Assembly: GCA_002762845.1 (NCBI GenBank)
Contig: PCYB01000066.1
Coordinates: 1 to 51,557, forward strand
Direction: 5' to 3'
DNA from: Candidatus Woesearchaeota archaeon CG10_big_fil_rev_8_21_14_0_10_36_11
GTDB lineage: Archaea > Nanobdellota > Nanobdellia > Woesearchaeales > GW2011-AR9
DNA length: 51,557 nt
Shown: piece by piece, positions 30,955-49,324 of the stretch
Position numbering within the stretch: the stretch's first letter is position 1
How the letters are laid out: the number at the start of each line of letters is the position of its first letter
Program-made: the position numbers and the translations under genes
Notes under the pieces: generated by a model
What the model was told of the DNA's origin: nothing
Databases searched by the model: none
What the model saw: only the letters and a program-made list of their open reading frames with translations

Positions 30955-32484
30955 ATGATTGATACAACAGCAATAAGGCAACAATTTCCATATTTACAGA
31001 GGTCACTTCAGATGGATGTGCGCAATCCGCGGACCGATACACCGCGCCATTTTATGGATAGTACCGCTTCGACACATTTACCTCTTCCAGTTCTTGAAAG
31101 AATTGCACAAAGTCTTTTCAGTTATGCCAATGTTCACCGAGGCGAATATGACGCATCAATGGCAACAACAGAAGAGTTTGAAAGGTCATATAATATTGCT
31201 GCAAACTTAGTTAATGCTCGTTCTTGGCGGGAAATAATTTTTGGAAGAAATGCAACAGACATGATTAATCTTGTACGGCGTGGAATGGAACGTCAAGTTC
31301 GCTCAGGAGATAATATAGTTGTTACTGCCCTTGAACATAATTCTAATTATGTTCCATGGGTCGAACTTAAAGCAACGTTAGCAGATTTTGGTCGAGAGGT
31401 AGACATTCGAATAGTTCCATTTGATCTTAAAACGGGAGAACTTAACATGTCTGAATTGAAACATCTTGTTGACAAGAGAACAAAATTGGTTGCTGTTACA
31501 GGTGCATCAAACTTTATGGGAGTCAAACCAGACGTTGCAACAATTGGTGAGATTGCACATGCAAGTGGATATGTACAACCAGACGGTTTTCAGGGGTCAT
31601 ACTTATTAGTTGATGGGGCACAACTTGTTCCAGGAAGTCCTGTCGATGTTCAGAATCTTGACTGTGATTTTTTAGCATGGTCATTTCATAAAATGGCATT
31701 ACCTTTGGGTGTTGGTGGTTTATGGGCTCGAAAAGAAGCAATTCAACATTTTGATCCTTACATATCTGGTGGGGATATGATTTTAGATGTTACACCAGAC
31801 GCTATTGAGTTTCAAGATTTACCTTGGAAATATACTGCAGGAACACCAAACATCTTAGGAGTTATAGGGACTGGATTTGGTATAGAATTTCTTATTTCCA
31901 TGGCTTTGGGCAATTTGTCTGAACATGATGAGATTGAACGTACTGGAAAACGTATTGAAACAGAAATCCTTTTGAACACGCCACGGGGAGATTTTGAATA
32001 TAGTTTGTATAATGTTGAAGAAAGACATCCCGCTGAGGTCGAACTCTTTGGGAGATATGTTGAAAGACATCATGATGTAATGGCAACTCTTCAAAATCCC
32101 CAGAAACGATTAGAGAAAACAAAACACGTTGTACGAACAGCGATGGAAAAGATTCAATATCACGAGCAGGAACTTACACAACGTGCAATTGACGGTCTTG
32201 TAACTATACCTGGGATAACTTTGTATGGTCCTACTGATGCGACACAAAGAACCGGCCTTATTGCATTTAATCTTGCAGGTATAGAACCAATGGCACTTGC
32301 ATTTGCATTAAACAGAGAAGGTGTTGAGGTGCGAAACGGTGTTCACTGTGCATCTCTTGCACATCATTATTTGGGGATTAGAGAAACTGGAAGTGTCAGG
32401 ATGAGTGTCTACGTACCAACAACACAAGATGAAGTTACTGCTGCAGTAGATGCAGTTACTAGGATACAAAAAAGATTACATTAA
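30955..32484 (+). CDS. Class V aminotransferase / SufS-CsdA-like cysteine desulfurase with a ~85-aa insertion
   Basis: ANVHRG, TALEHNSNYVPW, LVDGAQ, DCDFLAWSFHKM (PLP lysine), YTAGTPN and VRNGVHCASLAHHY (catalytic Cys). An insertion lies between GIEFLISMALG and HEQELTQRA. Confidence 0.85.
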   Translation: MIDTTAIRQQFPYLQRSLQMDVRNPRTDTPRHFMDSTASTHLPLPVLERIAQSLFSYANVHRGEYDASMATTEEFERSYNIAANLVNARSWREIIFGRNATDMINLVRRGMERQVRSGDNIVVTALEHNSNYVPWVELKATLADFGREVDIRIVPFDLKTGELNMSELKHLVDKRTKLVAVTGASNFMGVKPDVATIGEIAHASGYVQPDGFQGSYLLVDGAQLVPGSPVDVQNLDCDFLAWSFHKMALPLGVGGLWARKEAIQHFDPYISGGDMILDVTPDAIEFQDLPWKYTAGTPNILGVIGTGFGIEFLISMALGNLSEHDEIERTGKRIETEILLNTPRGDFEYSLYNVEERHPAEVELFGRYVERHHDVMATLQNPQKRLEKTKHVVRTAMEKIQYHEQELTQRAIDGLVTIPGITLYGPTDATQRTGLIAFNLAGIEPMALAFALNREGVEVRNGVHCASLAHHYLGIRETGSVRMSVYVPTTQDEVTAAVDAVTRIQKRLH

Positions 32485-32525
32485 TTATGAAAAAAAAAGA
32501 TGGTTAGAGAGTGTGAAGAATAACA

Positions 32526-34586
32526 ATGACAAACAGAAAAATTATTGGGGCAACAACTGCAGTTGCTACTACGATTGATGCGGCTAGTGCACACCACATT
32601 GAAAAGTTACTTGCATTAGATGCAGTTATACAAAGACCCAAATCTTTAGAAGATGTTCGTTTCATGGGTGATTCTTTGATTGCATCATTCGGATTAAACA
32701 TGGACAATCCAACATTACCTCCAGATATAGATAAAGGATATGCCACTGCCGTTTCTTTTTTAGAACGTATTTGTTCTGTCTTTGAAGATCCAACACATGT
32801 TATTAGGATGGCTCCTTTTGCACATGCGTACCTTGGAACTCAAGGTTTTAACGATGCACTTGACGTTATTCTTGATCGGGCCGAGAAATTTCCTAATGAA
32901 CAACCAATGCTTGATACTATTTTTCCTGCAACAGCTTTAGTACAACCTTCATCTCGTGAAGAGTTTTTACTCAGTGTATTAGGATATGCTGCGGGAGAGT
33001 TAGAAGGCGATGAACTTCTCGGTTTGGGCTTCTTAATTAGTGATGCCAATCCAAATGTTACATTCACTGATCCTGGAGAATTTCCTTCAGAGTTTCCAAC
33101 AAGTGATGTACGTGATGCTGCCCATCGTATAGGAACATTTCTTGAATCAGGATTCTTTATTCCAGGTGTTGGATTTACTGATGTCTATAAAACATTCAAA
33201 GAAAAAATGGGTGGAGATATTGAGTATATGTTTAAAGAACCTTTACCAGAACATATAGTGGTTGTTTCTCCTAGTGAAGAGAAGTTTACATTTTTACAGG
33301 ATGATAATACTGTTGAGTGGACACCATCATATGACGCGCGGCCAAATACAACACATGAAAATCCTACAATTGTTATTGTGAATGATATTGTTCCTCTTGA
33401 TGCAGTGCGTTGTGTGTATCGTAATTCAACTATTGTGTATGTTGCAGGAAATAAACTTGCACGTGATGCAATGATGTCTGAACTTGGACCTAGCGCGCAA
33501 GAATTATTAATCGATACAACTGTTGTTAATGATAAAGGAGCAAAAAATCGTGTTGCAAATCACTTGAGGTATATTAGAACTCGGCGAGATAATTCTGGGC
33601 TGGTTGACTTTCGTGATATGTTAAATGCAGATATAAATGTAGCAGAAGATTTTGTTGCTCGAGGAAATGAACATTTCTTTGATTTCCGTAGCTCATTTGA
33701 AGAATTAGGGCGGGAAGGTCGTATTGATGCTATGGTTGAAGAAAAAGGATACACTGTTCCAATTAAAACAAATAATGATCTTGTTATGCTTCTTTCTCAT
33801 ACAGAAAGAGATTTAAACCCATTTTTTGAAAATGTAACACCAAAAACAGTTCGTGCATATTCAGGAATACCAGATATTACAAAAACAGGAATGCCTTTTG
33901 CTATCCTTACTAATATGTCTGTTCCTCATGCAGACATTATAGCAGCATATCCCTCTGCAACAGTTTTGTACGTTGCGCGAGATGACTCGGAAGAAACACG
34001 TATTATGAAAGCAAATCCCAATGGTGACATCTTTGTTGTTAACACTCAAAGTGTGGAAAGAGTTGCTGGTGGAGGTCGAAATCGTGCAGGATATGCCATT
34101 GTTGAAATGTTTTTTGAACAAATTGCAGCAGGAAGAACTGAAGGTGTCACTGTCATGTCTGCAATTACAAAAAGGATTTCAGCAGGGATTAAAAAAGAGA
34201 GAGATGATATACTTTTTAAAGAAAGTCTTCCGGGCTTTGCAGGAACGGCAGCATCATATTGGCGATTACAGGAAAAGTATCGTGCGACACCACTCGTTGC
34301 ACAATTAACGGATGGTGTTCTTATGGAAACATGTCCTACGGGCGGTTGTTTCAAACTTAATCAACCAGAACAAGGCGGATGTTGTGGTGGTGGGAACCTT
34401 CCTGGTGTTCTTATTGATTTTGCAATTGCGTACCGAAAACAAGTTGGTGATGAAAAGTTCATTGCAGAACTACAAACTTTTCATGGTGGGAACAGAACTG
34501 CGCCATGGTATCTTGATACGCGAGAGTACAAAAGAGTATTCCCTGGCGGCATTGAACCGAAAAAGAAAGGGCGGTTTACATTTTAA
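32526..34586 (+). CDS. Hypothetical 686-aa protein with an internal ~75-aa duplication and a Gly/Cys-rich C-terminal motif
   Basis: No recognisable family. Repeats: IVIVNDIVPLDAVRCVYRNSTIVYVAG versus FAILTNMSVPHADIIAAYPSATVLYVAR. Tail: CPTGGCFKLNQPEQGGCCGGGN. Confidence 0.7.
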   Translation: MTNRKIIGATTAVATTIDAASAHHIEKLLALDAVIQRPKSLEDVRFMGDSLIASFGLNMDNPTLPPDIDKGYATAVSFLERICSVFEDPTHVIRMAPFAHAYLGTQGFNDALDVILDRAEKFPNEQPMLDTIFPATALVQPSSREEFLLSVLGYAAGELEGDELLGLGFLISDANPNVTFTDPGEFPSEFPTSDVRDAAHRIGTFLESGFFIPGVGFTDVYKTFKEKMGGDIEYMFKEPLPEHIVVVSPSEEKFTFLQDDNTVEWTPSYDARPNTTHENPTIVIVNDIVPLDAVRCVYRNSTIVYVAGNKLARDAMMSELGPSAQELLIDTTVVNDKGAKNRVANHLRYIRTRRDNSGLVDFRDMLNADINVAEDFVARGNEHFFDFRSSFEELGREGRIDAMVEEKGYTVPIKTNNDLVMLLSHTERDLNPFFENVTPKTVRAYSGIPDITKTGMPFAILTNMSVPHADIIAAYPSATVLYVARDDSEETRIMKANPNGDIFVVNTQSVERVAGGGRNRAGYAIVEMFFEQIAAGRTEGVTVMSAITKRISAGIKKERDDILFKESLPGFAGTAASYWRLQEKYRATPLVAQLTDGVLMETCPTGGCFKLNQPEQGGCCGGGNLPGVLIDFAIAYRKQVGDEKFIAELQTFHGGNRTAPWYLDTREYKRVFPGGIEPKKKGRFTF

Positions 34587-34618
34587 ATTAAACAAATAAA
34601 GACACACACAAACACACA

Positions 34619-35470
34619 ATGGTAAATAAAAAAAACGATACAATCCCATGTGGATACTGGAAGGATGTACACGGAGATGTGCACACTTTACCCGCAGGCT
34701 TTTGGACAGATAGGGACGGAGTAATCCGAGATAGAAGAGATAATCCACGACTTCCTGATGGAAGGTCAAGTGCTTTAGATGTATTTGCAAATTTACATGC
34801 GTCAACAAGTTTCCCAGACCTCTCAGGTCCAGAATCTGCTAGAATACAAGAATATCGAGAACTGGCTTATTCATTGATTATTATTTGTGGTGGTCAAGCA
34901 CCATCAGTAGTATCTCCAGTTTCGCGATCGCAAGGAACGGAAATACTAACACCTGCTGAAAGAAATGGTTGTTTTACATTCGGTGGTTTAGAAGTACAAC
35001 TAGATAAAGAAGAGATTGATGTTAGTGGAAAACCACAAACGTTTAACCGAAATTCGCCACCTGATTGTGTTCCTCAACTTTTACAGTTAGCATACGCTAC
35101 CATGTGCAATTCTCGCGAATCATATTTCCGTACAAAATTTGTTGCTAGCAATAAACCTGCAGAAGTATCAATTCTCAGAACGCATTATTTTCCTTTTAGT
35201 CTACTAGATAAAATCGATTCTGACGGAGATCCTATTGGGAGAGATATTGAGGTAGGACCTGCTCTTATGGATCATGTTTTGGTGGGGGGTACAGGTGTCC
35301 GAAGGGCGTATGTTACTCTTATGCTCCTTGATGGTGGTAGAGTGATATCTCAGTTACAAAAATATGGTGAAGGTACAGAAAGGATAATTCGCGCTGACGT
35401 TTTTTACAAACCTGTCGATGGAGAAGAAATAAAGATTGTTCCTTTGTATGAAAAAGAGATCTTGTTTTAG
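34619..35470 (+). CDS. Hypothetical protein (283 aa)
   Basis: Intact ATG ORF in the same-strand block. No motif recognised. Confidence 0.6.
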   Translation: MVNKKNDTIPCGYWKDVHGDVHTLPAGFWTDRDGVIRDRRDNPRLPDGRSSALDVFANLHASTSFPDLSGPESARIQEYRELAYSLIIICGGQAPSVVSPVSRSQGTEILTPAERNGCFTFGGLEVQLDKEEIDVSGKPQTFNRNSPPDCVPQLLQLAYATMCNSRESYFRTKFVASNKPAEVSILRTHYFPFSLLDKIDSDGDPIGRDIEVGPALMDHVLVGGTGVRRAYVTLMLLDGGRVISQLQKYGEGTERIIRADVFYKPVDGEEIKIVPLYEKEILF

Positions 35471-35618: not shown

Positions 35619-36272
35619 ATGGTAACAACAACAAGGCCATGTGGAGACACTCGGCCAGAAGATAGAAAAGATGAAAAAACAGTTGAAGAGCAGAAATATA
35701 CCGTTGGAAATTTAGATCCAAATTTTCACGTTATTCTTGCACTGTTTCCTGGATGTGTTCAGGGTGGTCGAGTAGCAGTTGCAACGCGGGGAGACGATAG
35801 GCACGTTCTTTTAGACGGAACAGCTCAACAAATTGTTGAATATGGTGTAGGAAAGCAAGTAACTATCGAGGGTGTAAAATATTCTCGAAACGTTAGTGCA
35901 AGAGCGCAACCTGCAGTTGACGGTATCATTGCTGAAATGACGGGAACTGGCGAAGTTGCAAAACTCATTGAAGAAACTGGTAAAAAGACAGGGAAAGGTG
36001 CTCAGTTTGGTGGGTACACTGTTACAGTTCATGCAAAAGCTGCCGATGGTACTGAAGTAAAAGAACGTGTTACTTTAGGTTCTAAAGTAAATCAGTACTT
36101 CCGTCCAGATAGTGTTCTGAAAGATGATGTTAAAAGGGAGTTCCTCGGCGGAGTAGAACTGATGGTATCTGCAATCATCATACCTGGAAGTTCCAATGAC
36201 AAAAATGTTTTAGGAACTGAAAGCACTTCTAGCTATTGTGCAAAGGGTACCATTGACTACAAACTAGCATGA
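35619..36272 (+). CDS. Hypothetical 217-aa protein; candidate ubiquitin-like modifier precursor (speculative)
   Basis: Intact ORF with GAGG 13 nt upstream. Internal ...VKREFLGG (GG at nt 36147-36152) is followed by a 39-aa tail. The stop overlaps the next start (ATGA). Confidence 0.6.
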   Translation: MVTTTRPCGDTRPEDRKDEKTVEEQKYTVGNLDPNFHVILALFPGCVQGGRVAVATRGDDRHVLLDGTAQQIVEYGVGKQVTIEGVKYSRNVSARAQPAVDGIIAEMTGTGEVAKLIEETGKKTGKGAQFGGYTVTVHAKAADGTEVKERVTLGSKVNQYFRPDSVLKDDVKREFLGGVELMVSAIIIPGSSNDKNVLGTESTSSYCAKGTIDYKLA

Positions 36273-37735
36273 AAACATTAACAACGTTTTTGGAAAGGAT
36301 AGCTGAGAGGGGGCTTTCTTTTGTATTGCATGGAAGTCGTCTTTACGATTTCGTCGATACCGAGAAGTATCCGGATAATGTTCGTGTTGGCGGTTTTCAT
36401 CAATCATTAGTTCCCTCACTTTCTTTTTCTCATCTTGAACGTTTTGATGTTGATATGCAAGTAAGACCAATTCATACTCACTGTACCGGATATGTGAAAG
36501 ATACTGTCAATGCAGAACTGAAAGCAGAAGAAGAGTTACTCTCAGAAAAAGGGCGGATACACACTTTAGAATTTATCATGTATGAATTGTTACCTTTAAT
36601 CGTGAGCAAGAAATACGGTGCTGATAGTAGCATTTACCACGACGAAATTAATGCTGCTCTTGATGACTTAGAAGGGGGTACAGGAAAAACTTCTGGTGTT
36701 GAAATACAACAGGATAGATTTGTTCAAACAGCAAAAGAAGAGATACGAGCACAACTCGCACAGGATTTTGGAACTGACGATACGGTGGAAGAAAATCCAA
36801 GTGAACGATTACGTGCCATCGTATTGCAAAGAGAAAAACAATCTCTTAGTCGTGATCCTTTAGTTCCATTGTTATATACTCCCGAAGAAATTGGTATAGT
36901 TGAAGATGGTATTTCTTCATCACTGTTTGGAGAAATAACAGGTAACCAAGCATTATATGTTATTAATGGAAATGTCTTTCAGTTAGTGATACGAGACCAA
37001 CATGATGATGGTGCAGATAGTGTTGACAGTGAACTTGTTTTTACTGTTAACGGAAGGGAGTACGTTCCTGGTAAGAAAGTTACTGACATAGCAACACTTT
37101 CTTCAGAATATAAACAGCGCCGGGTAAAATTATGGCGTATTGCTGCCCTTGAAAAGAGTAAAGATGCGTTTGATATCATTAGAAATATAGTGAGAGAAGA
37201 TGGAGTAACACAAAGGCAAATGCATGAACTTGCAAAAAGAGAAGAGTATGATATTTCAGGTAGTGGTTTTATTTTAAGAGAAGGACACTATTATGTATAC
37301 ACAACAGTAAACAAATTTGCAACTCAAGATGGACGAAATGGTGATGTATTTTGGCCATTTCCTACAACACGTGTTGCTATTCAAGTTGGATCCAATGGTG
37401 GTGTACATTACGTTACTAGAGAAGTTTACGTTGTAGAACAGCGAGAACATCACCCCTGTATTCGTGAGAGAATGAGGCCTAGTGGATTTGGTTCATTATG
37501 TAACCTTAAAGATAGCAATTATGGAAAAACGCCCGCAGAGATGGTCCGTAGACTAAATGCTGGCGTAAATGTTGTTAGAGAGCCACTTAATCAAATCAGT
37601 CTTGATAAACATCCCGGGTACACATATTTTTATGTACATCTTGATGATATTTTAACTCAAGGTTCTTTGACACGTGCTGATGCAAGAGCACAGGGATATG
37701 ATGTTATTGAGGTGTTAGAAAAAAAAGTGACATAA
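36269..37735 (+). CDS. Hypothetical 488-aa protein; C-terminal region with UBC/E2-like motif pattern (speculative)
   Basis: The C-terminal ~150 aa show predicted-strand-like runs followed by EHHPCIRERMRPSGFGSLCNLKD and then a helix-like TPAEMVRRLNAGV. This resembles the HPN...Cys layout of E2 enzymes. Confidence 0.6.
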   Translation: MKTLTTFLERIAERGLSFVLHGSRLYDFVDTEKYPDNVRVGGFHQSLVPSLSFSHLERFDVDMQVRPIHTHCTGYVKDTVNAELKAEEELLSEKGRIHTLEFIMYELLPLIVSKKYGADSSIYHDEINAALDDLEGGTGKTSGVEIQQDRFVQTAKEEIRAQLAQDFGTDDTVEENPSERLRAIVLQREKQSLSRDPLVPLLYTPEEIGIVEDGISSSLFGEITGNQALYVINGNVFQLVIRDQHDDGADSVDSELVFTVNGREYVPGKKVTDIATLSSEYKQRRVKLWRIAALEKSKDAFDIIRNIVREDGVTQRQMHELAKREEYDISGSGFILREGHYYVYTTVNKFATQDGRNGDVFWPFPTTRVAIQVGSNGGVHYVTREVYVVEQREHHPCIRERMRPSGFGSLCNLKDSNYGKTPAEMVRRLNAGVNVVREPLNQISLDKHPGYTYFYVHLDDILTQGSLTRADARAQGYDVIEVLEKKVT

Positions 37736-39786: not shown

Positions 39787-41340
39787 ATGACAAACGCTGA
39801 CACTCTTGTAATCGAAGAAGAACGGTATGACAGACAGAAATTGCTCTGGGGTGATGCTGGTCAAGATAGACTTAAGAATGCACGAGTGTCCGTTATAGGA
39901 TTAGATTTTCAGGGAAAATACGTTGCACTTTGTCTTGCAGCTCTTGGTGTTGGTAATGTAGTTCTTATTGATGGCAAAAATACAATCGAAGAAGAGGAAC
40001 GTGGCACATTTATGGGTACTCCCGTTTCCCATGGTTCTCGAGCATTAGCATATGCAGAACTTCTTCGTCGTGTTAATCCTCAAATACGCGTTGAAGGATA
40101 TCCAACAGACTTAGTTTCACGAATTGATCAAGATACATTAACTGGTTCAACAGTTATTGTTGATGCAACAAATATGGTTACATCAAAAAGAAATGCAATC
40201 CTGTTTGGTCATGAACATCATATCCCTGTGTTAAGTACATCTTCCCAATGGGGATATACAAAACTTGTACGGTGCGATTCCGAATCTCATGATCTAGCAT
40301 ATCTTATGCCTATGTTTGAAGGAAATGAGCAGGACGAATTAATGGCATTACTTATGTGCGGTGTTACGACTGAAGAAGTTCGTAAACTTATCTTTAATGA
40401 TAAAGATATTCTGCAAAAACCAGTTAGATACCGGCTTGGCGACGGATATCGTTTTGGATTCCCGAAAGAAGGAGAAATGGCTCCTCGACCTGATGCGACT
40501 AAATACGCTGATCTTCGTGTTGCATTCCTTGGCGCAGGCGCTATTGGATGTTGGGGCGCGATTGCTGCAGCAAAAATGGGCATTGACCGTGTTGACGTGT
40601 TTGATTACGATACGTTTGATTCAACAAATATTAACAGACAGGTATTAGGTTTTGACGGTGTTGGAGAACTGAAAGCAGTTCATATTGCAAAAAAGATTGT
40701 GGAAATGAGTTTAGGGAGAACACACTCTGATGGATTTAACGTAAAGATTCTTCCTGGATTTGAAACAGAACGGGAATATGATGTTGTATTCGACTTTGTT
40801 GATAATCCTTACACTCGTGCATTGAACACTGCACACGCAATTTCACATAATATACCAATGATAAGTTCAGGAGCACTTCCATATAGTGCGCGGTCAATAA
40901 CACAAGTTGCTGGAAAGACATTCTGTCAAGATTGTCTTTATCAGATTTATGATCGGGGTAGACAGGATGAAATGATTCGACGTGCAAGTTGTGCAGCCAA
41001 TCCTGACCCCTCGGTTGTCATGAGTAATGCTGTTGCAGGTGCACTTGCTGTACTTGAAATTTTTACGTTAGTTGAACCTGAAAAGTATGGGGTACCGTTC
41101 AGCGGAGAAATTATGTACCGTTCATCTGCTCCAACGAGGTTTGGTGCGGAGGGACTAACGGGTGCATGTGATTGTTATTCCAATCCTGTTCCGCAATTGG
41201 AAATATCGGATGAAGATGTTGCAGCATTTGCTAATGCAATTCCTCACGTACTTACGGGAGGATTAGTAGAAACTGAAAGAAAAGAAGGGAGAGGATTAGA
41301 AAGAGGATTAGAAGTGCTTACTGTTGAGCAACCAGAATGA
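39787..41340 (+). CDS. Tandem ThiF/MoeB-type E1-like adenylyltransferase (degenerate N-terminal plus intact C-terminal adenylation domain)
   Basis: Repeat 1: VSVIGLDFQGKYVALCLAALGVGNVVLIDG ... IVDATNMVTSKRN (nucleotide loop degenerate). Repeat 2: VAFLGAGAIGCWGAIAAAKMGIDRVDVFDYDTFDSTNINRQ ... VFDFVDNPYTRALN. Cys motifs CQDC and CDC are also present. Confidence 0.8.
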   Translation: MTNADTLVIEEERYDRQKLLWGDAGQDRLKNARVSVIGLDFQGKYVALCLAALGVGNVVLIDGKNTIEEEERGTFMGTPVSHGSRALAYAELLRRVNPQIRVEGYPTDLVSRIDQDTLTGSTVIVDATNMVTSKRNAILFGHEHHIPVLSTSSQWGYTKLVRCDSESHDLAYLMPMFEGNEQDELMALLMCGVTTEEVRKLIFNDKDILQKPVRYRLGDGYRFGFPKEGEMAPRPDATKYADLRVAFLGAGAIGCWGAIAAAKMGIDRVDVFDYDTFDSTNINRQVLGFDGVGELKAVHIAKKIVEMSLGRTHSDGFNVKILPGFETEREYDVVFDFVDNPYTRALNTAHAISHNIPMISSGALPYSARSITQVAGKTFCQDCLYQIYDRGRQDEMIRRASCAANPDPSVVMSNAVAGALAVLEIFTLVEPEKYGVPFSGEIMYRSSAPTRFGAEGLTGACDCYSNPVPQLEISDEDVAAFANAIPHVLTGGLVETERKEGRGLERGLEVLTVEQPE

Positions 41341-41438: not shown

Positions 41439-44400
41439 ATGGCAGAAGAAATTATACAAATGTTAAAACTTAAAGAACAAGAAAGAACTAAAGAACTAGA
41501 AATACTTCCTATACTCGATATTCCTCCTGCACTTGATGACGATGACAGTTTTTTTGATGAAGATGACTTAGCAGATATGTTTAATCGCGCAAGTGAAACA
41601 AATCTTTTTGGTGAAGAAGAAGAGGTTGTTACTGTTGTCGCTCCTCCATATGATCCAGTTAAGAAAATAGCAGCTATTTTGGAACTGGATGATGGTCGTA
41701 CAAAAAGAGATCCAGTAACATTCAATCCTAATCCTGTTCGTAATATGGTTTTTAACGCGTTGACAAGGAATGTTCTTCCAACAACATTTAAGGGCAGTCC
41801 TTTGGATAGTGATGGGCCAGTTTCTGATTTAGCAAGCGGAATATTGGTAGCTGAAAGTGCACTACGCCATTTTTCTATAAAAGAAACTGTTGATGGTGCC
41901 AGTTCCGCAGAAGGATATTTCCAAGAGGTTTCATGGAATTTAGGTACGCGAATGCAAAGATTGTTAAATCTTGAACTTGAGACAATGGAAGAACTGGGAT
42001 TGACATTATTAGAACGAGCAGGGTATGCATTTAATGCTGCATCACTTCGATATATCGATCTAAAAACAGGAAGATTTTTCTCTCGCGAAAAAGTACTTGA
42101 TGACATAGAACAACTTACTCTTGTTACAAATCCTACATTTATGAAGCGTGTTGGAATATATTACAGTACTCTTGGAAAACGATATATAAATGCCAGAATA
42201 AAAAAGTTTGTTTCTCGTGAAAGTGCACGAGATATGTTAGAACTTGGCGGCTCCATTAGAATTGCATCAGAGCTTACACTTGAAGAATCTGTTCAAATAC
42301 ACGGTAGGAAAAGAGTTGTGGAAAGAACAGAAACGTATCAAGATGTATTCTTTGAAGGGTTTCATCCTGAGACTTCTATTGTCGCTGATACCGTTGCTCA
42401 TATTCTTACTGGATACGAAGACCGTTTACGCTACGTTACTTCCTTTGATGAACTTGCAGATTTAACAACACTTTGTCTTGGCATTGGTTTAGTTACTGAT
42501 GAAACAACTGCCCAAGCTTTACGTACCTATGCTCTTGATCATTCTGTTGATGCGAGAACACTACTTTTGCGAACGTTCGCTACTGTTGCACAGCAGGATG
42601 GTTTTTTTCAGGACATGAAAATTGATGATGTATTATCACGATACGAAATTGGTTTACACTCAAGAGCAACATATACAAAAAATATGGTCCGTGAACTGGA
42701 CGAGTTACGTGGAAGAACATTTAATTTTAACGTATTAGCAGAACAAATTGTGACACGGTTAGAAGAAGAAAAAGGAGTTGTCCTTTCACTTCCTTCAATT
42801 TACGGTGAAGACGATTTTGATAATTTTTGTACCAGAATTACCGACTTTAATGTCCCTCTGTATGAAATTGTTTCTGATGATACGTTCGGCGCTTTACGAG
42901 CACAGTACGGAAAGATTCAATATGAATTTGAACAAAGTGATGTTAGAGCAAAAAAAGCTCGTGATGCCGTTCCTGTGGGCCATTCCTCATTAGGAGAAAA
43001 AGTGTTACAACAATTACACAGAAAGTACGGGCTTGATGTGGAACAAAGACAATTTGAATCCTATGAAGTATATAAAGAACAATCTGCAGAATTAATACAA
43101 GTTGTAAGGGGAATAATTCAAAAAACATTGGATGATGTTGTTACAGTTATTCCAAAAAAGTTAGGCGTTGACGTTCGTGTTAAATCTCTTGGTCCTATAA
43201 AAAGAAGAATAAGATATCTTCACGGGGGAGAAATCCATGACGTGCCTATTGGAAGCACAGGTACAGTTACAGGAATAAGAAAAGAAGGAACTTACACTAC
43301 TATCTTTGTTGCATTTGACCATCGTACTCATCACACTGATTGGTATACAGATCCTAAAGAGTTAGAGATTATTGCTAGTGATACTATTCCTTCTGAATTA
43401 CGTGGCGTTCTTAAAGAATTTGACGGCGATACTGAACGTGCTGCTGCCAGTATTATTAGCTCACTTGAACAGGAGATTAATTATGTATATCGAGAACAAG
43501 AGTTTAGAAGAATTAATGATGAACATATTGCACAACAAAAAGTAATCGCTGCAAAAATGTCCACTCTCTTTTTTGATAATGGAAAAAGAGTTATGCGAAC
43601 ATTTAGGGCATTAGGAATTGGGGAGTACAAGTCTAGAGAAACCAACACTCATCGTGTTCCTTTGGGAACTATTGGGCTTCCTGAGAGATACACCGGCGAC
43701 GGTTTTTTTGATGTTACATTTCCAATTCGAGACAGAAGAGGAAAGATTCATATTGATGAAATGCAACTTTTACGAAAAGTAGATGTTTCACCACGGTCAA
43801 TGATCGGTGCCCGTGCTCAAATTACTCAAGAAACAAATGAGGGAGATTATAAACTGGGAAGTTGGGGTATAGTAACTGGCACAGATGGAATTTCCCTGAG
43901 AGTACAATTTAAACATATTGAAGGAAAAGAGACTCAAGACGATTTACCTTGTGTATGGATACGTAGTCGGTATCTTACACTTAAATATGACGATATTGAA
44001 TGGAGAAAAACAGTTAATAAAACAACAAACAATCTCTTTGACAGTATTGAACAGACTGTACGTGATGTCCAGCGTGAATATAAACAGGTACAAAATCGCA
44101 AACGTGAATTAGTTGAATTAGGAGTGTCTCACTTCCGTGCAATAGGTATTGAAGATACAATCATACATATTCTTTTTGAGGATTGTCTTACCAATGAGGA
44201 TTTTGTGACGTATGTAAATAATGGTCTTCTTTCATCAGAAAGTGTGTTCGACGAAATTGAGACTGAACTAGATAGTTTAGGCGGCGAAGAGGAATATAGT
44301 GGTTTAGCTACTAAAATTAAAACTCAAGTTCAAGAAAAGATGGGACTCATATGGAGCGATACAACAGAAATTACTGGCGAAGAAACATATCAAACATTTA

Positions 44401-45158
44401 AAGATACACTTGTTGAATCGATAGTACAGAGGGGGTATATTATTTCAAAAGAAGGTACTGCAATCCCTAAAACTATCAAAAAGAGAACTCCCGTTCTTTT
44501 TGTAAAGGGATATGATGGAATTCCGGAAGGATCTTTTGGAATATTTAAAGAGTGGTGTGAAGGTGTGGGAGGGAACAATGTTCATGTTGATGGAACAACG
44601 AATGGGAACAATTGTTGTATCCCTAAAAATTGCTTAGTAACTGATGTCGTTCCTCTATTTACTTTACGTGATAACATTGATGATCTTACAAAAGGTGCAT
44701 ACAAAAGAGGCGTTAAAGTACGGCTCAGGATGGACAGCCAGTATGCATATCAACATGCAGGTGTTGGAGTTCTTGAAGAAGATTTAGAAGGAGAGGATAC
44801 AGAATATTATGGAGATGTATGTTTTGAAGGCGGGTACGTTAATGCATACAGAATAAAAGATTTAGAACTTGTCAATCCTCAAGATGTGTTACAGGGAAAA
44901 CAATTGCAATTGTATCAAAAAGCAATGCAAGAAAGAGAAACAAGAAAAGAAGAAATCCGGCGTGGTGTTGAATCAATAATTCAGGAAATAGAACGGGAAC
45001 GTAATCAACGCTATCAGAAAGTGCACGACTTATCTGTTGCTGTCCGAGACGAGTTACGGTCGTTTGGAAAAACAGACACAGAGATATACGAAGTATTTGA
45101 ACAACACATTTCTGAAACTTCTTACTTAACATACCGAGGAATATTAGATGTTGCATAA
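41439..45158 (+). CDS. Hypothetical 1239-aa protein with acidic N-terminus and at least 5 repeated beta-barrel-like modules
   Basis: Intact ORF. Repeats fall at about nt 43221-43379, 43650-43784, 43809-43991, 44484-44648 and 44709-44876. No catalytic motif recognised. Confidence 0.75.
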   Translation: MAEEIIQMLKLKEQERTKELEILPILDIPPALDDDDSFFDEDDLADMFNRASETNLFGEEEEVVTVVAPPYDPVKKIAAILELDDGRTKRDPVTFNPNPVRNMVFNALTRNVLPTTFKGSPLDSDGPVSDLASGILVAESALRHFSIKETVDGASSAEGYFQEVSWNLGTRMQRLLNLELETMEELGLTLLERAGYAFNAASLRYIDLKTGRFFSREKVLDDIEQLTLVTNPTFMKRVGIYYSTLGKRYINARIKKFVSRESARDMLELGGSIRIASELTLEESVQIHGRKRVVERTETYQDVFFEGFHPETSIVADTVAHILTGYEDRLRYVTSFDELADLTTLCLGIGLVTDETTAQALRTYALDHSVDARTLLLRTFATVAQQDGFFQDMKIDDVLSRYEIGLHSRATYTKNMVRELDELRGRTFNFNVLAEQIVTRLEEEKGVVLSLPSIYGEDDFDNFCTRITDFNVPLYEIVSDDTFGALRAQYGKIQYEFEQSDVRAKKARDAVPVGHSSLGEKVLQQLHRKYGLDVEQRQFESYEVYKEQSAELIQVVRGIIQKTLDDVVTVIPKKLGVDVRVKSLGPIKRRIRYLHGGEIHDVPIGSTGTVTGIRKEGTYTTIFVAFDHRTHHTDWYTDPKELEIIASDTIPSELRGVLKEFDGDTERAAASIISSLEQEINYVYREQEFRRINDEHIAQQKVIAAKMSTLFFDNGKRVMRTFRALGIGEYKSRETNTHRVPLGTIGLPERYTGDGFFDVTFPIRDRRGKIHIDEMQLLRKVDVSPRSMIGARAQITQETNEGDYKLGSWGIVTGTDGISLRVQFKHIEGKETQDDLPCVWIRSRYLTLKYDDIEWRKTVNKTTNNLFDSIEQTVRDVQREYKQVQNRKRELVELGVSHFRAIGIEDTIIHILFEDCLTNEDFVTYVNNGLLSSESVFDEIETELDSLGGEEEYSGLATKIKTQVQEKMGLIWSDTTEITGEETYQTFKDTLVESIVQRGYIISKEGTAIPKTIKKRTPVLFVKGYDGIPEGSFGIFKEWCEGVGGNNVHVDGTTNGNNCCIPKNCLVTDVVPLFTLRDNIDDLTKGAYKRGVKVRLRMDSQYAYQHAGVGVLEEDLEGEDTEYYGDVCFEGGYVNAYRIKDLELVNPQDVLQGKQLQLYQKAMQERETRKEEIRRGVESIIQEIERERNQRYQKVHDLSVAVRDELRSFGKTDTEIYEVFEQHISETSYLTYRGILDVA

Positions 45159-45179: not shown

Positions 45180-47612
45180 ATGACACAAAAAACTGTTATC
45201 TCAACGGCAACTAGCGTAAATCTCACAGAAAGTACTATTCCTAACACTCCTCCTGATATCTTTGCACCATTACTAAAGACTGTGTACCAACTTGTAGCAC
45301 GGGATTATATTGATACCATTTTTTATTTATTAGGCGATACACCCTCTCGCGTACAGTTAGCTTCTCAAATTCCTAACATTCATACAGATGCAGACTTTGC
45401 CACTTTTTTATCTTCATTACCTTCGGCAACAGAACTTGCCGACATTGTAAAGCAAGACATTCGTGCTGAGTACGCAACGCTTGATACTGTTCTTGCAGAA
45501 AACGAAACACGACGTGCAACTGCATTGGCCGGTGCACAGATAGACTTTTCTGAATACGTTCCCGTATTACTTGAAGCAATAAATCGTCAATTACAAGTTT
45601 CACTTCCTTCTCCTAAAAGAGGTATAACTACCAAGGACGGTTTTGATACTTACCGAAGTACATTGGAAGGCCACGTATCTGATGCTATCACTGCAAAACT
45701 TACTTCTCCTTTTGGAAACGGTATGCGTATCGGCGATATTCTTACTGTAACGCGAATGTCAGGTCTTACTATTGACGATGATGGTGAGATGGCAGATGAG
45801 TTTCATTATGGTGGAAACCAAGACGATATTCCTCTTGGTCTTGAGGGCGAACTTGTCAATATCATTGGAAAAGATTCCGTTTTCGTTCGTTTTACTCGTG
45901 ATGGCGACGTAAAAGAATGGCAATTTTATCCCGACGAAATTACAAGTACTGGCAGAAATACGTACCAGGAATATCTTACCAAATTTGGTGGCGATGTAGG
46001 CCAAGCAGCCTCAACAGTTATTGCTACTGCTGAATTTCGTCTTATTTCTGAATATCTTCAAAGAGCACAAGAACGAGTTAATAACGTATTTGATGCAAAT
46101 GTTAGTTACATTTCAGATAGTATCCGAAGACGGTTTGCTCTTACCGACGATCAACTTACTGCCCTTGTTGCTGGTGATGACTTTGAGTACACCATTGACG
46201 ATGTAAAAGAAGGCGGACAAGTTGTCATTCCATTTGAAAGGTTGGCAGTCTTAGCATATCGGGCTTTAACTCACAAACTTGGTAAAGACACGAAACGTCC
46301 AAATCAGAGAATTGTAAGCGAAGCCGATTTTAGGCGTTTTATATCTGATTCAGCAATAAAATTGCGTGCAGGTGAAGATACATTCGATTTAGTTAAAGAA
46401 CAAATGAAAACTCTTGCAGTTTTACTCGAAAAAGAATATAGTGTTGTTGGCAGAAGGATGGTCCAGGAGAGTAAAGAAACACAACTAGGACGGGTTTTAG
46501 ATTTAGCAATTGAATCTTGGATTGATAGAGAACATCAAAGTGGTTGTTTAGGCGTCAAATATTCGTTTGATAGGGCATTATTGTACAATGATAGAAAAGT
46601 ATACACTGCTGAACCTTTCTCACCGCCATCAGAGGAGCTACATAGAGTTATCAAACTAGAAATGGGAAATGGTTGTAGTTATGCTAAATGCACGTATTGT
46701 ACAGAATATGGGCAGGCACGTTTCTTTTTACGGTCTCCTGACGACTTTAAAGATCATGTGCAGGAAGTAAAAAGAAAATTAGGAAGAGACATTAAGAATG
46801 TTGAAAGAGTATTTTTGGCTGGAGGGAGTATCCTATCTATTCCAACTAAAATACTTATTCAATATGTTGATATTGCCAGGAAGGCATTTCATAATCAACG
46901 AACAGATGGAGACAGAACGTATATTAGACGAATTGCTGCGTTTACGCGAACAGAAGGGCTAGCACGGAAGTCAGTACAAGAATTGGACGAACTGGTTAGT
47001 CATGGACTTAATATGGTTTTCTGGGGTATTGAAACGGGCGCTGATTCTGTTTTACAGTATGTTAACAAGGGAATTACTCACGACGAAATGATTGCTGCCG
47101 GATCAAAAATGCCACATACTCGAATGGAAGTTTCAACGATGGTAATGACTGGTCTTGGTGGACTTAAACATTATGAGAATCATGTTGTTCAAACTGCTAA
47201 ATTATTAAATGCTCTTCAGCCGCGATATATAACGTTTATGACGATAAATGCTCAACCTCATTCAATGTATGCTCATATCATGGCAGGAGAACAGGCTCGG
47301 GGAGAAAATATGCCCCTTACACCAGAGATGGTAGTCGAACAAATGTATGATATCGTGAGTCTTATTGACCCAAGATTATGGTCTGGTCGTCGTTGTTTAG
47401 TCGCTGCGTATCAATTACCTGTAGAACGAATTGCTGAAAATCCTGTACAATTTCGTGGCAGGTTAGAATATAATGACAAAACTACAATTTTGAGAGGGTT
47501 ACAAGATTACTTTACACGTGGTAGGACACCCAGTGAACTTGTTCCTGTAGCAGAATTTAATCAGAAAAGTCCTTTGAGAAGAATGGTGGTGGGAGACACT
47601 CCGATTGAATAA
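45180..47612 (+). CDS. Radical SAM enzyme with ~480-aa N-terminal extension paralogous to the preceding giant protein
   Basis: GNGCSYAKCTYCTEYG (CX4CX2C, nt 46674-46700), VFLAGGSIL, and FWGIETGADSVLQYVNKG. The N-terminal region carries a barrel-like module and the FGGDVGQAAS segment shared with 41439..45158. Confidence 0.75.
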   Translation: MTQKTVISTATSVNLTESTIPNTPPDIFAPLLKTVYQLVARDYIDTIFYLLGDTPSRVQLASQIPNIHTDADFATFLSSLPSATELADIVKQDIRAEYATLDTVLAENETRRATALAGAQIDFSEYVPVLLEAINRQLQVSLPSPKRGITTKDGFDTYRSTLEGHVSDAITAKLTSPFGNGMRIGDILTVTRMSGLTIDDDGEMADEFHYGGNQDDIPLGLEGELVNIIGKDSVFVRFTRDGDVKEWQFYPDEITSTGRNTYQEYLTKFGGDVGQAASTVIATAEFRLISEYLQRAQERVNNVFDANVSYISDSIRRRFALTDDQLTALVAGDDFEYTIDDVKEGGQVVIPFERLAVLAYRALTHKLGKDTKRPNQRIVSEADFRRFISDSAIKLRAGEDTFDLVKEQMKTLAVLLEKEYSVVGRRMVQESKETQLGRVLDLAIESWIDREHQSGCLGVKYSFDRALLYNDRKVYTAEPFSPPSEELHRVIKLEMGNGCSYAKCTYCTEYGQARFFLRSPDDFKDHVQEVKRKLGRDIKNVERVFLAGGSILSIPTKILIQYVDIARKAFHNQRTDGDRTYIRRIAAFTRTEGLARKSVQELDELVSHGLNMVFWGIETGADSVLQYVNKGITHDEMIAAGSKMPHTRMEVSTMVMTGLGGLKHYENHVVQTAKLLNALQPRYITFMTINAQPHSMYAHIMAGEQARGENMPLTPEMVVEQMYDIVSLIDPRLWSGRRCLVAAYQLPVERIAENPVQFRGRLEYNDKTTILRGLQDYFTRGRTPSELVPVAEFNQKSPLRRMVVGDTPIE

Positions 47613-47650: not shown

Positions 47651-48382
47651 ATGACACTACCAATTGAAATAATACATTTTGTGGACGAAATAAGAAATAA
47701 CAGATATTTTCAAAGAGAAGTGCGTTTTGTTCAAGAAGGGTTGGGGGTCGAGTTACCTTTTGCTAACTTCTTTAAGGATTATGTACCAAAAGAAGAATGG
47801 TTCTATCGACACAATACTGGTGTTCATGATATCTCTCATGAAACGAGAGTTCTTGTTCTCTCAGAAATTATTGGAAGGTTAGTGCGCAAAAAGAGAGAAG
47901 TTCTTGTTGATATGAAGAGCATTCGCTGGGCAGCAATTACTCATGACACACAAAGAACTGGAGAAGGGTCTAATTATGAACATGGAGTAAAAGCTGCAGA
48001 GTGGGTCCAATCTAATGCCCACCGTATAATCCCTCATGATTGCGATTCAAGAGGAGAAGAGGTGAATATTGATCAAGTAGCATATCTTAATAAGTGGCAT
48101 GTTCCGCACGACTCTGAGGCCCCTGTTATGACTTTAGAACTTTCTATTCTTAAAGATGCAGATGGATTAGACAGGGTGAGGGTTGGAGAACTAAATCCAG
48201 TTTATTTAAGAACGGAAGAAGCAACAAGAATAGTTTTTGTTGCGTATGGTCTTTACGTGGTTAGTAACGCTTTACAACAACGGGATCAACATCAGCAACA
48301 TCATTTTGGTGAATATGCTTCTGTTATAGAAGCTGCAACATTGTTAGGAATCGTAAAGAGAAGTACACTTGGGCGAGAATGA
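47651..48382 (+). CDS. HD-domain phosphohydrolase
   Basis: VHDISHE, AAITHDTQR (the HD dyad) and LKDADGLDRV motifs. Confidence 0.65.
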   Translation: MTLPIEIIHFVDEIRNNRYFQREVRFVQEGLGVELPFANFFKDYVPKEEWFYRHNTGVHDISHETRVLVLSEIIGRLVRKKREVLVDMKSIRWAAITHDTQRTGEGSNYEHGVKAAEWVQSNAHRIIPHDCDSRGEEVNIDQVAYLNKWHVPHDSEAPVMTLELSILKDADGLDRVRVGELNPVYLRTEEATRIVFVAYGLYVVSNALQQRDQHQQHHFGEYASVIEAATLLGIVKRSTLGRE

Positions 48383-48499
48383 GAATGAACATAAAAACAT
48401 AATCCGAATCCACAACTGAATGTTAGAATATCAATCAAGTGAATTAAAAAGACAGAAATAACAAGAATAACAAACAACAAAAAATAAACAAGAACAAAA

Positions 48500-49324
48500 A
48501 TGGACCCCGAATTAAGGTTAAGTTATATGAAGTATGTAGCCAGAACAGCCGGTGGTTTAATCAACGAAGCACTAGGGCGAGGTCTTAAAGTAAACTATAA
48601 AAATGACGGTTCTATTGTAACCTCTGCTGACCTTAGGGTAAGAGATTTTGTTCGGGAAGCGTTCACAAGAGAATTCTCAGAATGTGGTTTATTGACTGAA
48701 GAGAGTGAAGATTCTTTGGAACGGTTAACAAAAAAAGGAGTTATTATTGTTGATGAGGTAGATGGAAGTAACGAACTTAGAAAGGGGGGGTCAGACTTTT
48801 CATTTCAGTGTGCATATGTGGAAAATGGAATTCCTACTATTGGACTCATCTGTGAACCTCATAAAAATAGAATGTACTTTGCTCTAAAAGGGGGTAAGGC
48901 ATATCTTGTCGAGAGGGAAACGCAACCTATAGAATTACCTTCGTTAGAAAGAGTAGCGTGGGAAAATGTGCTTGTTGGCCATCATAGAAATGGGCGTGAT
49001 CATAGAAGACTTTATCGTCTTTTGGGAATACCTGAAAACAGAATTGTTACTTCTGGAAGCATGGGGACAAGGATGGTTCAAGCTGCTACTCGGGACATCC
49101 ATCTTTATGTAAGTTTTACAAGAAGATTAAAAGAATGGGACATTGCTGCTGGTCAGGTACTGCTTGAATCATTAGGATTTAGCGTGACAGATGTTTATGG
49201 AAAACAATTAGAATACAACAAAAGAAATCCAATAACTCAAAACGGTATATTGGTTGTTCATCCAGATATTAAGAGAGTTACTTTGAAAAAACTTTCTAGC
49301 TGTTATGATCAAGTTCTTTTTTGA
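48500..49324 (+). CDS. Inositol monophosphatase / CysQ-family phosphatase-like protein
   Basis: LTEESED, IIVDEVDGSNE (a variant of DPIDGT) and KEWDIAAG (the WDxAAG motif). Confidence 0.7.
   Translation: MDPELRLSYMKYVARTAGGLINEALGRGLKVNYKNDGSIVTSADLRVRDFVREAFTREFSECGLLTEESEDSLERLTKKGVIIVDEVDGSNELRKGGSDFSFQCAYVENGIPTIGLICEPHKNRMYFALKGGKAYLVERETQPIELPSLERVAWENVLVGHHRNGRDHRRLYRLLGIPENRIVTSGSMGTRMVQAATRDIHLYVSFTRRLKEWDIAAGQVLLESLGFSVTDVYGKQLEYNKRNPITQNGILVVHPDIKRVTLKKLSSCYDQVLF

Follow-up and report, generated by a model that had tools for sequence, protein, structure and literature searches.

An archaeal operon was analysed in which an E1-type activating enzyme for a candidate ubiquitin-like protein (Ubl) is encoded together with a cysteine desulfurase. 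It occupies positions 30955–49324 of the window, which covers positions 1–51,557 of contig PCYB01000066.1 from a Candidatus Woesearchaeota metagenome-assembled genome (MAG); ENA also has the contig (51.7 kb). The operon clearly belongs to the broader Ubl-E1-JAMM kind; no account of such an association with a desulfurase and radical SAM enzymes was found in the literature searched, and three or four of its protein families are orphans. The best reading is that the operon hard-wires a ubiquitin-like activation module to its own sulfur mobilisation. More specifically, the module may carry out Ubl activation and thiocarboxylation in the manner of Urm1 and the SAMPs and act on a macromolecule, a reading that is tentatively preferred here.

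Conserved gene core

The genes of the block and the basis of their assignment are listed below (aa, amino acids).

30955..32484 (+): g1, SufS-like (class V, type II) cysteine desulfurase; Pfam, NCBIfam, and invariant residues
32526..34586 (+): g2, orphan of ~650–690 aa with a C-terminal Cys cluster; conserved in the loci, no family match
34619..35470 (+): g3, window-specific ORFan of 283 aa between g2 and g4; no homologue in related loci
35619..36272 (+): g4, candidate Ubl precursor; AlphaFold2 model and Foldseek
36269..37735 (+): g5, orphan of ~470–505 aa, translationally coupled to g4; invariant His-Pro and Cys
37801..39744 (+): g6, large candidate metallopeptidase with a JAMM/MPN+ motif; invariant motif and hhalign to Rpn11
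39787..41340 (+): g7, tandem E1 of the ThiF family; Pfam ThiF, PDB matches, and motifs
41439..45158 (+): g8, giant protein (820–1239 aa across orthologues) with SH3-like repeats; iterated hidden Markov model (HMM) and PDB/Pfam SH3_15
45180..47612 (+): g9, radical SAM enzyme of ~756–810 aa; Pfam Radical_SAM and invariant Cys triad
47651..48382 (+): g10, weakly HD-domain-like accessory protein; sub-cut-off Pfam HD
48500..49324 (+): g11, accessory phosphatase of the CysQ/IMPase family; NCBIfam CysQ and Pfam Inositol_P

An earlier sequence-only reading of the window had described the block as 11 plus-strand open reading frames (ORFs) with short gaps or an ATGA overlap and flanks of mixed orientation. 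All 11 ORFs were found at exactly these coordinates, and the genes on either side are of mixed orientation. The intergenic gaps from g1 to g11 were 41, 32, 148, −4, 65, 42, 98, 21, 38, and 117 bp, and thus ranged from −4 to 148 bp. The gap of −4 is the ATGA overlap that joins g4 and g5. An AT-rich spacer of 218 bp lies directly 5′ of the array. The GenBank records PIN75808–PIN75817 (locus tags COV17_03625–03670) correspond to the window proteins g2–g11, and 10 of 10, the E1 and the radical SAM enzyme among them, are labelled 'hypothetical protein'.

Ten distinct loci carrying the module were found in archaeal MAGs and metagenomes (the window, L002, L004, L008, L009, L010, L013, L014, L015, and L017). 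The conserved core consisted of g1, g2, g4, g5, g6, g7, and g8, in one order and on one strand in the 10 loci, with 21–66% identity. Since the same order recurs in nine further loci at this level of protein identity, the gene arrangement is not due to chance. The L010 contig is cut at its 5′ end, and counts for the positions of g1 and g2 are therefore out of nine loci. The desulfurase gene g1 was the first gene of the operon in all nine loci with an intact 5′ end, and g2 was present in all nine loci covering its position; g1-g2 and g4-g8 were never found apart among the 10 loci. Identity to the window protein was 52–66% for the g1 orthologues, 56–64% for the E1 g7, 37–49% for g2, 35–45% for g5, 29–41% for g6, 31–42% for g4, and 21–28% over the whole alignment for g8. 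Every core protein has at least one invariant Cys, which in g4 is near-invariant. A conserved neighbourhood, which the sequence-only reading had marked as worth looking for, was thus obtained. Its unit of 11 genes had to be narrowed: seven genes (eight with g9) were conserved, while g3 is confined to the window and g10 and g11 recur in one other locus.

A radical SAM enzyme of the g9 type was present in seven of the 10 loci, in two copies in L009 and L015. Five loci (L008, L010, L013, L014, and L015) have an orthologous B12-radical SAM enzyme of 444–459 aa. One or both of these enzymes followed g8 in nine of the 10 loci. The operon of L017 has no radical SAM gene and keeps g1 and g2, so g1 is more constant across the loci than the radical SAM genes. 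In L009 (14661–20773), two g9 paralogues are accompanied by a third radical SAM gene that runs in the opposite direction, and L015 (17232–21449) combines one B12-radical SAM gene with two g9 paralogues.

Counterparts of g10 and g11 were found only in L004, at the same position, with identities of 53% and 59%, respectively. An alpha/beta hydrolase gene occurs in L010 and L013. These three are lineage-specific accessory enzymes. No homologue of g3 was found in any related locus by BLASTP and tblastn, and g3 had no family match. In L004, the gap between g2 and g4 is 27 bp, compared with the 283-aa g3 inserted there in the window only. By sequence comparison, g3 is outside the conserved system.

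The system appeared rare in the collections searched. Three relatives of g6 were found among 5.8 billion clustered proteins, and 24 relatives of g4 among 1.84 billion representatives. Pattern scans derived from the E1 alignment hit 2 of 185,579 GTDB species genomes, 6 JGI metagenome contigs, and 0 IMG/VR contigs; these counts are lower bounds, as exact peptide patterns were required. The g5 orthologue P0006 (L015/L016) was found unchanged on 23 contigs that come from many samples (26 index blocks), and at least one carrier of the operon is therefore environmentally widespread.

Core proteins and accessory enzymes

The E1 g7 matched Pfam ThiF (2.1e-42) in two stretches corresponding to its two halves. 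In the N-terminal half, the arginines of the RYxRQ motif are kept and the Gly motif is degenerate; its best PDB matches were NAE1 (5e-12), SAE1, and the inactive domain of UBA7. In the C-terminal half, the motifs GAGAIGC, NINRQ, and DFVDN are intact; its best PDB matches were Uba4 (3.5e-16), TcdA, SAE2, and MoeB. The motifs confirmed the earlier call of a tandem E1 at 39787..41340, which consists of fused inactive and active adenylation domains with a single intact active site. Four Cys are invariant (C380/C383, as CQDC in the crossover loop, and C461/C463, as CDC near the C-terminus) and form the expected zinc site. Cys402 is also invariant and lies in a crossover loop ~7 residues longer than that of MoeB, with ~25 residues between CQDC (380–383) and NPDPS (405–409). 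No CYS domain and no rhodanese domain were found in g7. Its NCBIfam equivalog scores were far under the cut-offs (64 vs 450 bits for UbaA; MoeB and ThiF likewise), and no Bil E1 was among its best 60 PDB matches.

The desulfurase g1 matched Pfam Aminotran_5 (2.6e-91) and NCBIfam SufS TIGR01979 (1.9e-99, 333 bits, under the cut-off of 475 bits). The score falls under the cut-off because of an insertion of ~95 aa and divergence, which makes g1 SufS-like and not an equivalog. Eight orthologues all keep Lys246, which binds pyridoxal phosphate, and Cys465 (RNGVHCAS), the catalytic residue. From these residues g1 looks catalytically competent, and the SufS-like desulfurase of the sequence-only reading was borne out. 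The insertion (residues ~327–420) is conserved and helical, splits the Pfam match in two, and holds the invariant residues D346, R385, and E404. Partners from the operon may dock at it.

The orphan g2 had no match in Pfam, NCBIfam, PADLOC, PHROGs, or PDB sequences, singly or as a profile. Near its C-terminus it carries METCPTGGC-x10-C, in which C603, C608, and C619 are invariant (C603-x4-C608-x10-C619). It is possibly a partner handling sulfur, metal, or Fe-S, to judge by this cluster.

The presence of g1 and g2 could also be explained by two or three modules merely travelling together. In that case, g1 (with g2) would only equip the radical SAM enzymes with mature Fe-S clusters, and the Ubl-E1-JAMM part would work apart from sulfur. 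SufS-type enzymes normally supply Fe-S assembly, g9 requires a [4Fe-4S] cluster, and the three-Cys cluster of g2 could hold a cluster. However, L017 keeps g1 and g2 without a radical SAM gene, the two gene groups stay together in a tight co-directional array in the 10 loci, and no scaffold of the SufBCD, SufU, or SufE-like type was found to be encoded by Pfam and NCBIfam searches. This explanation is considered very improbable.

The structure of g4 was modelled by AlphaFold2 with 19 family sequences, with a predicted local distance difference test score (pLDDT) of 87.9 and a predicted template modelling score (pTM) of 0.82. Residues ~10–192 formed one compact body, and the tail at 196–211 was disordered with pLDDT below 50. 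The DSSP string of the model was read as two beta-beta-alpha-beta-beta units joined by a helical hairpin. The top Foldseek matches against PDB were almost all Ubl/beta-grasp domains, namely the FERM-F1 domains of radixin and SNX17, DIX, RA, RAWUL, the UBL domain of USP15, staphylokinase, and superantigen-like (SSL) beta-grasp domains. The model supports g4 as a candidate ubiquitin-like beta-grasp protein. A fold search against BFVD was uninformative. Distant g4 matches in the giant proteins P0030–P0032 were rejected as spurious, being Ig/cadherin adhesin-like or lost when the family profile was used.

The conserved last strand of g4, GGVE.VSAII.PG, ends at Gly190, and G178 and G190 are invariant. 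After G190 the orthologues have tails of variable length, from ~2 to more than 40 residues, and conservation and order both stop at Gly190. The alignment and the model suggest that Gly190 is likely the mature C-terminus, which would leave a tail for a processing peptidase to remove. The sequence-only reading had proposed a Ubl with an internal LGG as its end. The Ubl part of this proposal was retained as a candidate, while LGG (176–178) was rejected as the C-terminus: it forms a turn in the model and is followed by the conserved last strand, so Gly190 is preferred. As a pattern argument, the internal GG may be likened to the DGD of ThiS, which also forms a turn just ahead of the final strand.

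In g6, the residues E129, H192, H194, S204, and D207 are invariant in 11 sequences. In JAMM/MPN+ metallopeptidases, the metal-binding and catalytic signature E-x(n)-H-x-H-x(7-10)-S-x2-D lies in an MPN fold. By hhalign, all five motif residues of g6 were in register with the E/HxH/S/D of Rpn11. The score was 21.2; 200 shuffles gave 13.1 ± 2.4, and one of them scored as high (the PSMD14 comparison sequence may contain small errors). No Pfam, NCBIfam, or PDB sequence or profile match was found for g6. The JAB/MPN+ assignment made earlier thus kept its motif but gained no family match, and g6 is probably a JAMM peptidase that has diverged strongly and carries additional domains. Its JAMM core (~90–330) is preceded by a low-complexity N-terminus with the invariant Cys60 and followed by an extra C-terminal domain. 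The N-terminal region differs in length among orthologues, and C60 is always kept in the context C-[PV]-L-x. An imperfect 39-bp tandem repeat of 2.1 copies at 37870–37950 encodes this Thr/Ala/Pro-rich region.

The orphan g5 has an invariant His395-Pro396 and an invariant Cys411 15 residues downstream (H395 and C411 in 12 sequences). No internal repeats were found at the sequence level. The sequence-only reading had called this HPC...LC segment E2-like. The AlphaFold2 model of g5 had a pLDDT of 69.6, and the loop with HP...C was below 50. Around the motif, the model showed a helix, a beta-meander, a loop, and helices, an order compatible with the UBC fold. In a forced global hhalign alignment, HHPC fell on the E2 HPN and C411 on the E2 catalytic Cys. 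However, 0 of the 167 Foldseek matches of the model in PDB were E2s, and none had E ≤ 0.001. No match was found in Pfam (all members scanned), PADLOC, or PDB by sequence or profile. The hhalign score against five E2s was 12.7; 100 shuffles gave 14.1 ± 3.4, and 62 of them scored at least as high (the E2 sequences used may contain small errors). Only the forced global alignment placed these residues on the E2 motif. The E2 identity of g5 is not supported; with the loop modelled below 50, a very divergent E2 is conceivable. The protein is a candidate thiol-transfer protein.

The giant protein g8 consists of helical linkers and repeated SH3-like barrels, with copies at 567–652 and 709–786 in the window protein and further diverged ones. 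Its Cys1040 is invariant, and the protein is fast-evolving (21–28% identity between orthologues). An ~80-aa module is present in at least two copies in g8 and in one copy in the N-terminal extension of g9, as detected by iterated HMM searches with E down to 1e-26; at the BLAST level, the paralogy of g8 and g9 covers ~240 aa. The earlier observation that these two proteins share a module therefore stands. The best PDB match of the module profile was the REP domain of MIB1 (4tse_A, E 9.3e-4). Pfam SH3_15 (Mind bomb SH3 repeat) was matched by 6 of 21 module copies, the best with an E of 0.0011, below the cut-off. The protein is probably a scaffold or a substrate-recognition protein.

For g9, Pfam Radical_SAM PF04055 was matched at 1.5e-09 and 38.7 bits, over the cut-off of 29.5 bits. 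The radical SAM core lies at ~490–700, and its Cx4Cx2C motif (C499, C504, and C507) is invariant in eight sequences. These features confirmed the prediction that g9 is a radical SAM enzyme. The N-terminal ~470 aa hold the ~240-aa module paralogous to part of g8, with an SH3-like barrel at 176–265. The enzyme fitted no radical SAM subfamily; weak matches were obtained to Elp3, OxsB, RaSEA, and B12-radical SAM families. For g10, Pfam HD was matched at E 6.8e-4 and 20.3 bits, under the cut-off of 22 bits, so the HD hydrolase named in the sequence-only reading was not upheld. For g11, NCBIfam CysQ TIGR01331 was matched at 1.9e-31 and 110 bits, under the cut-off of 229 bits, and a precomputed Pfam Inositol_P match was available; the predicted CysQ/IMPase-like character was confirmed. 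The orphan status that the sequence-only reading gave to the other proteins was upheld.

A constant core accompanied by lineage-variable genes (g10/g11, the hydrolase, the B12-radical SAM enzyme, and the doubled g9) is also what a biosynthetic cluster with tailoring genes would look like. In such a cluster, a small molecule or peptide would be built on, or sulfurated by, the activated C-terminus of g4, tailored by variable enzymes (radical SAM enzyme, B12-radical SAM methyltransferase, hydrolase, and phosphatases), and released by the JAMM protein. The combination of Ubl, E1, radical SAM enzyme, and desulfurase resembles the logic of ThiS/ThiF/ThiH/IscS and MoaD/MoeB/MoaA, and genes for ThiF-like proteins, radical SAM enzymes, and peptidases are known to occur together in thio-cofactor pathways and those of ribosomally synthesised and post-translationally modified peptides. 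However, no ThiG, MoaE, sulfhydrylase, YcaO, ATP-grasp protein, or transporter was recognised by Pfam and NCBIfam here or in the related loci. The proteins are unusually large, with repeats of the protein-interaction type, L017 has no radical SAM gene, and DPANN hosts generally have little biosynthetic capacity. A biosynthetic cluster is therefore regarded as improbable.

Composition, flanking genes, and genomic setting

The guanine-plus-cytosine (GC) content was 0.387 in the block and 0.348 in the remaining window. The GC content at third codon positions (GC3) was 0.21–0.26 in the block and 0.18–0.36 in the flanks, and was thus equal or lower in the block. Since GC3 is the same as or below that of the flanks, the higher GC of the block reflects amino-acid composition and not codon usage. 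Across the related loci, the operon GC was 0.33–0.50, tracked the host, and was mostly 1–4 points over the flanks. The GC-richer block seen in the sequence-only reading was real, but a foreign island was rejected because of the GC3 values and the tracking of host GC in every locus. Nothing points to a recent foreign origin of the block.

The flanks are archaeal in look, with an STT3/AglB-peptidyl-prolyl isomerase fusion, a DUF483 protein, an Lrp/AsnC regulator, and two tRNA genes. The fusion protein (19486–22944, −; 1152 aa) joins an STT3/AglB oligosaccharyltransferase to a C-terminal PPIC-type peptidyl-prolyl isomerase (Rotamase_3, 1.8e-27); it is unusual and lies in a glycosylation gene cluster. 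The tRNA genes (51248–51369 and 51380–51505, both −, ~122–126 nt) scored 42.6 and 54.6 bits with Rfam, and ARAGORN in its default bacterial mode reported no tRNA genes. Their length suggests archaeal, intron-containing tRNA genes. Upstream of the operon, a 98-aa ORF (30440–30736, +) with a CxxC...CxxC zinc-ribbon-like N-terminus is called as a gene in ENA; it was rejected as a conserved operon member, as it has no counterpart in the other loci. A B12-binding radical SAM enzyme is encoded 24 kb upstream of the operon (6338–7777, +). It was rejected as the missing B12-radical SAM accessory of the window, since its identity to the operon-linked enzymes is just 21–23% and it is not their orthologue.

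The hosts of the 10 loci had GC contents of 0.31 to 0.50, and the neighbourhood varied by locus, with eIF2-gamma, genes for RNA processing, or a glycosylation cluster nearby. Only L017, one of 10 loci, has surroundings that resemble a defence region or a mobile element. There (1–5154), the operon lies directly downstream of genes for an MmeI-like type IIG restriction-modification enzyme, a DUF559 protein, an NmeDI-like protein, and an ArdC-N/Peptidase_M78 protein. In L008 (CAYVYK010000004.1, a 127-kb contig), GC was 0.50 in the operon and the flanks, and the MAG is labelled 'uncultured Methanosarcinales archaeon'. Either the operon reaches beyond low-GC DPANN lineages, or this bin label is unreliable.

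No viral relatives of the E1 were found in IMG/VR by profile search, and none of g5 among phage and plasmid sequences. With PADLOC, the matches of the window proteins were limited to generic E1 and DndA/SspA types, and PHROGs gave only two marginal matches (g8 and g10), to families of unknown function. A virus, plasmid, or defence origin was rejected on these results. The operon is self-contained and chromosomal, and is found in a few DPANN archaea (Woesearchaeota/Nanoarchaeota-type MAGs).

Proposed function and comparison with known systems

In the tentatively preferred reading, g6 would remove the variable, disordered tail of the g4 precursor and expose Gly190. Its motifs being intact, g7 would then adenylate Gly190 in its single active site. 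The desulfurase g1 would take sulfur from cysteine as a persulfide on Cys465 and pass it to the Ubl acyl-adenylate, giving a Ubl thiocarboxylate, a step that would mirror Urm1-Uba4 and SAMP-UbaA. The transfer from g1 could be direct or via the invariant Cys of g7 (C402), g5 (C411), or g2 (C603/C608/C619). On a macromolecular substrate, the activated Ubl would then donate sulfur, serve as a covalent tag, or do both, like Urm1 and the SAMPs. The SH3-repeat protein g8 would recruit the substrate, and g9, which carries a copy of the g8 module, and/or the B12-radical SAM enzyme would process it further.

This Urm1/SAMP-like reading is preferred because the desulfurase is present in every 5′-complete locus, even in L017 with no radical SAM gene, and because the active domain of the E1 is nearest to Uba4 among solved structures. 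Further reasons are that no E2 is demonstrable and that the operon lies outside defence islands and mobile elements. The large multidomain proteins, the SH3-like repeats, and the 470-aa extension of g9 point to a macromolecular and not a small-molecule substrate. The sequence-only reading had offered two hypotheses, (a) a conjugation system and (b) a sulfur relay. The evidence leans to (b), without deciding, because of the desulfurase in all nine loci with an intact 5′ end.

Several points weigh against this reading. Thiocarboxylate chemistry is not demonstrable from sequence. The known E1s of sulfur carriers are homodimers of a single-domain protein and often include a rhodanese domain (Uba4/MoeZ); the tandem inactive and active E1 without rhodanese is unlike them. 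The fused architecture is otherwise a hallmark of conjugating E1s, and the gene order Ubl-X-JAB-E1 is that of BilABCD (PMC10557695). The fold matches of g4 were each weak (E 0.05–0.5, probability ≤0.77, target-normalised TM score ≤0.58). The g4 profiles gave nothing significant against ThiS, MoaD, Urm1, ubiquitin, and SAMP2, with comparison sequences that may contain small errors. The candidate Ubl ends in Pro-Gly and not Gly-Gly and is far larger than ThiS, MoaD, Urm1, and the SAMPs. The JAMM assignment of g6 consists of the motif and a z-score of ~3.4, g1 could supply only Fe-S clusters, and g2, g5, and g8 have no assignable activity.

The main rival explanation is a eukaryote-style conjugation system like Bil. 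There, g6 would trim g4, and the Ubl would pass from a thioester on Cys402 of the E1 to Cys411 of g5 as a very divergent E2. As part of the same explanation, g8 would be an E3 or adaptor, the targets would be tagged for defence or regulation, and the desulfurase and radical SAM enzymes would be effectors or Fe-S suppliers. The order g4-g5-g6-g7 corresponds to Ubl-E2-DUB-E1 of BilABCD, and the fused inactive and active E1 with a four-Cys zinc site matches BilD. The invariant His-Pro and Cys411 of g5, its element order, and the forced hhalign alignment are a lead towards an E2. The two-unit appearance of g4 is as in ISG15 and type I BilA, the g8 repeats weakly match the MIB1 REP domain, g8 evolves fast, and L017 adjoins an MmeI-like restriction-modification gene and an ArdC-N gene. 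However, the Foldseek, profile, Pfam, PADLOC, and PDB results for g5 described above stand against an E2. The CYS domain of BilD, ~80 aa long, is absent from the E1, whose loop exceeds that of MoeB by only ~7 residues, and no Bil E1 was among the best 60 PDB matches of g7. The context is not a defence island in nine of 10 loci, and the desulfurase would be left unexplained as the most constant partner. A Bil-like conjugation system is thus considered somewhat unlikely.

Compared with the published BilABCD system (PMC10557695), the operon here is alike in having genes for a candidate Ubl, a second protein, a candidate JAB-type peptidase, and an E1 in that order. The E1 is in both a single polypeptide whose N-terminal adenylation domain is inactive and whose C-terminal one is active. 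The candidate Ubl here would, like that of Bil, need C-terminal trimming and may have more than one beta-grasp unit. The mobile helical CYS domain of BilD, ~80 aa in the crossover loop with the catalytic Cys, is absent from g7. The second protein here is ~480 aa and not demonstrably an E2 (UBC-like 'CEHH'), and the JAB protein is ~600 aa. The host here is archaeal, the operon is not in defence islands, no Bil protein was among the sequence matches, and a SufS-like desulfurase, g2, the SH3-repeat protein g8, and radical SAM enzymes are added. The operon was not assigned to Bil because of the absence of a CYS domain, a demonstrable E2, and Bil matches.

The eukaryotic Urm1-Uba4 and archaeal SAMP-UbaA-HvJAMM1 systems serve both in sulfur transfer and in conjugation. 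In them, as proposed here, a ThiF-type E1 activates a Ubl, sulfur from a cysteine desulfurase can turn it into a thiocarboxylate, and a JAMM peptidase takes part. Their E1s, however, are single-domain homodimers, with a rhodanese domain in Uba4, whereas g7 is tandem and has no rhodanese. Their Ubls are ~65–100 aa and end in Gly-Gly, their genes are scattered and not in one operon with a dedicated desulfurase, and partners corresponding to g2, g5, g8, or the radical SAM enzymes are lacking. In the CysO-MoeZ-Mec+-CysM, QbsC/D/E, and HcyS/F/D systems, a JAMM protein of the operon trims a Ubl extension, as proposed for g6, and adenylation by the E1 is followed by thiocarboxylation. Those systems consist of small single-domain proteins and include a recognisable enzyme of small-molecule metabolism, either a sulfhydrylase or enzymes for quinolobactin; none of these enzymes is present here.

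The four kinds of component found or proposed here, namely a cysteine desulfurase, an E1, a beta-grasp carrier, and a radical SAM enzyme, are also those of the ThiS/ThiF/ThiH/IscS and MoaD/MoeB/MoaA pathways. Homologues of ThiG, ThiH, MoaA, and MoaE were not found in the window operon or the related loci, and the E1 here is tandem. The operon was likewise not assigned to the SAMP/Urm1, ThiS, or MoaD systems, because its E1 is tandem, rhodanese and pathway enzymes are absent, and its Ubl is large and ends in Pro-Gly. The ~80-aa SH3-like barrel of g8 and g9 best matches the REP repeats of MIB1, the substrate-binding part of an E3 ligase. These matches are weak, no RING or other ligase domain is present, and SH3-like barrels are widespread, so the likeness is a fold-level lead.

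The thiocarboxylate or thioester could also be coupled directly to radical chemistry on a macromolecule. A Ubl thiocarboxylate, or a Ubl thioester bound to the E1 or g5, would then be the sulfur donor or tethered partner for radical SAM enzymes that dock via the g8-type SH3 module. This coupling is judged unlikely. If it is true, it would be a new protein or RNA modification, with g2, g5, and g8 as new protein families and a eukaryote-type fused inactive and active E1 in DPANN archaea.

Text searches of the literature found no description of this operon. No radical SAM or desulfurase associations are mentioned in the 2006 survey of prokaryotic Ubls (PMC1779556) or in the 2010 survey of archaeal Ubls (PMC2948915).

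Ubiquitin signalling has its prokaryotic roots in Ubl-E1-JAMM modules. The operon mixes the characters of sulfur-carrier and conjugating systems: its E1 is a fused one of the conjugating type with an inactive half like the eukaryotic regulatory subunits, its desulfurase is constant, and a radical SAM enzyme is usual. The known prokaryotic Ubl lines are sulfur carriers with homodimeric E1s and conjugation systems (Bil, CBASS, and Bub) with E2s. At least three core proteins (g2, g5, and g8) have no recognisable relatives. The retention of 15–18 kb for one system in genome-reduced DPANN archaea implies an important role. Knowing the product of the operon could uncover a modification of a new kind, dependent on sulfur or a Ubl, and could inform the evolution of E1 architecture.

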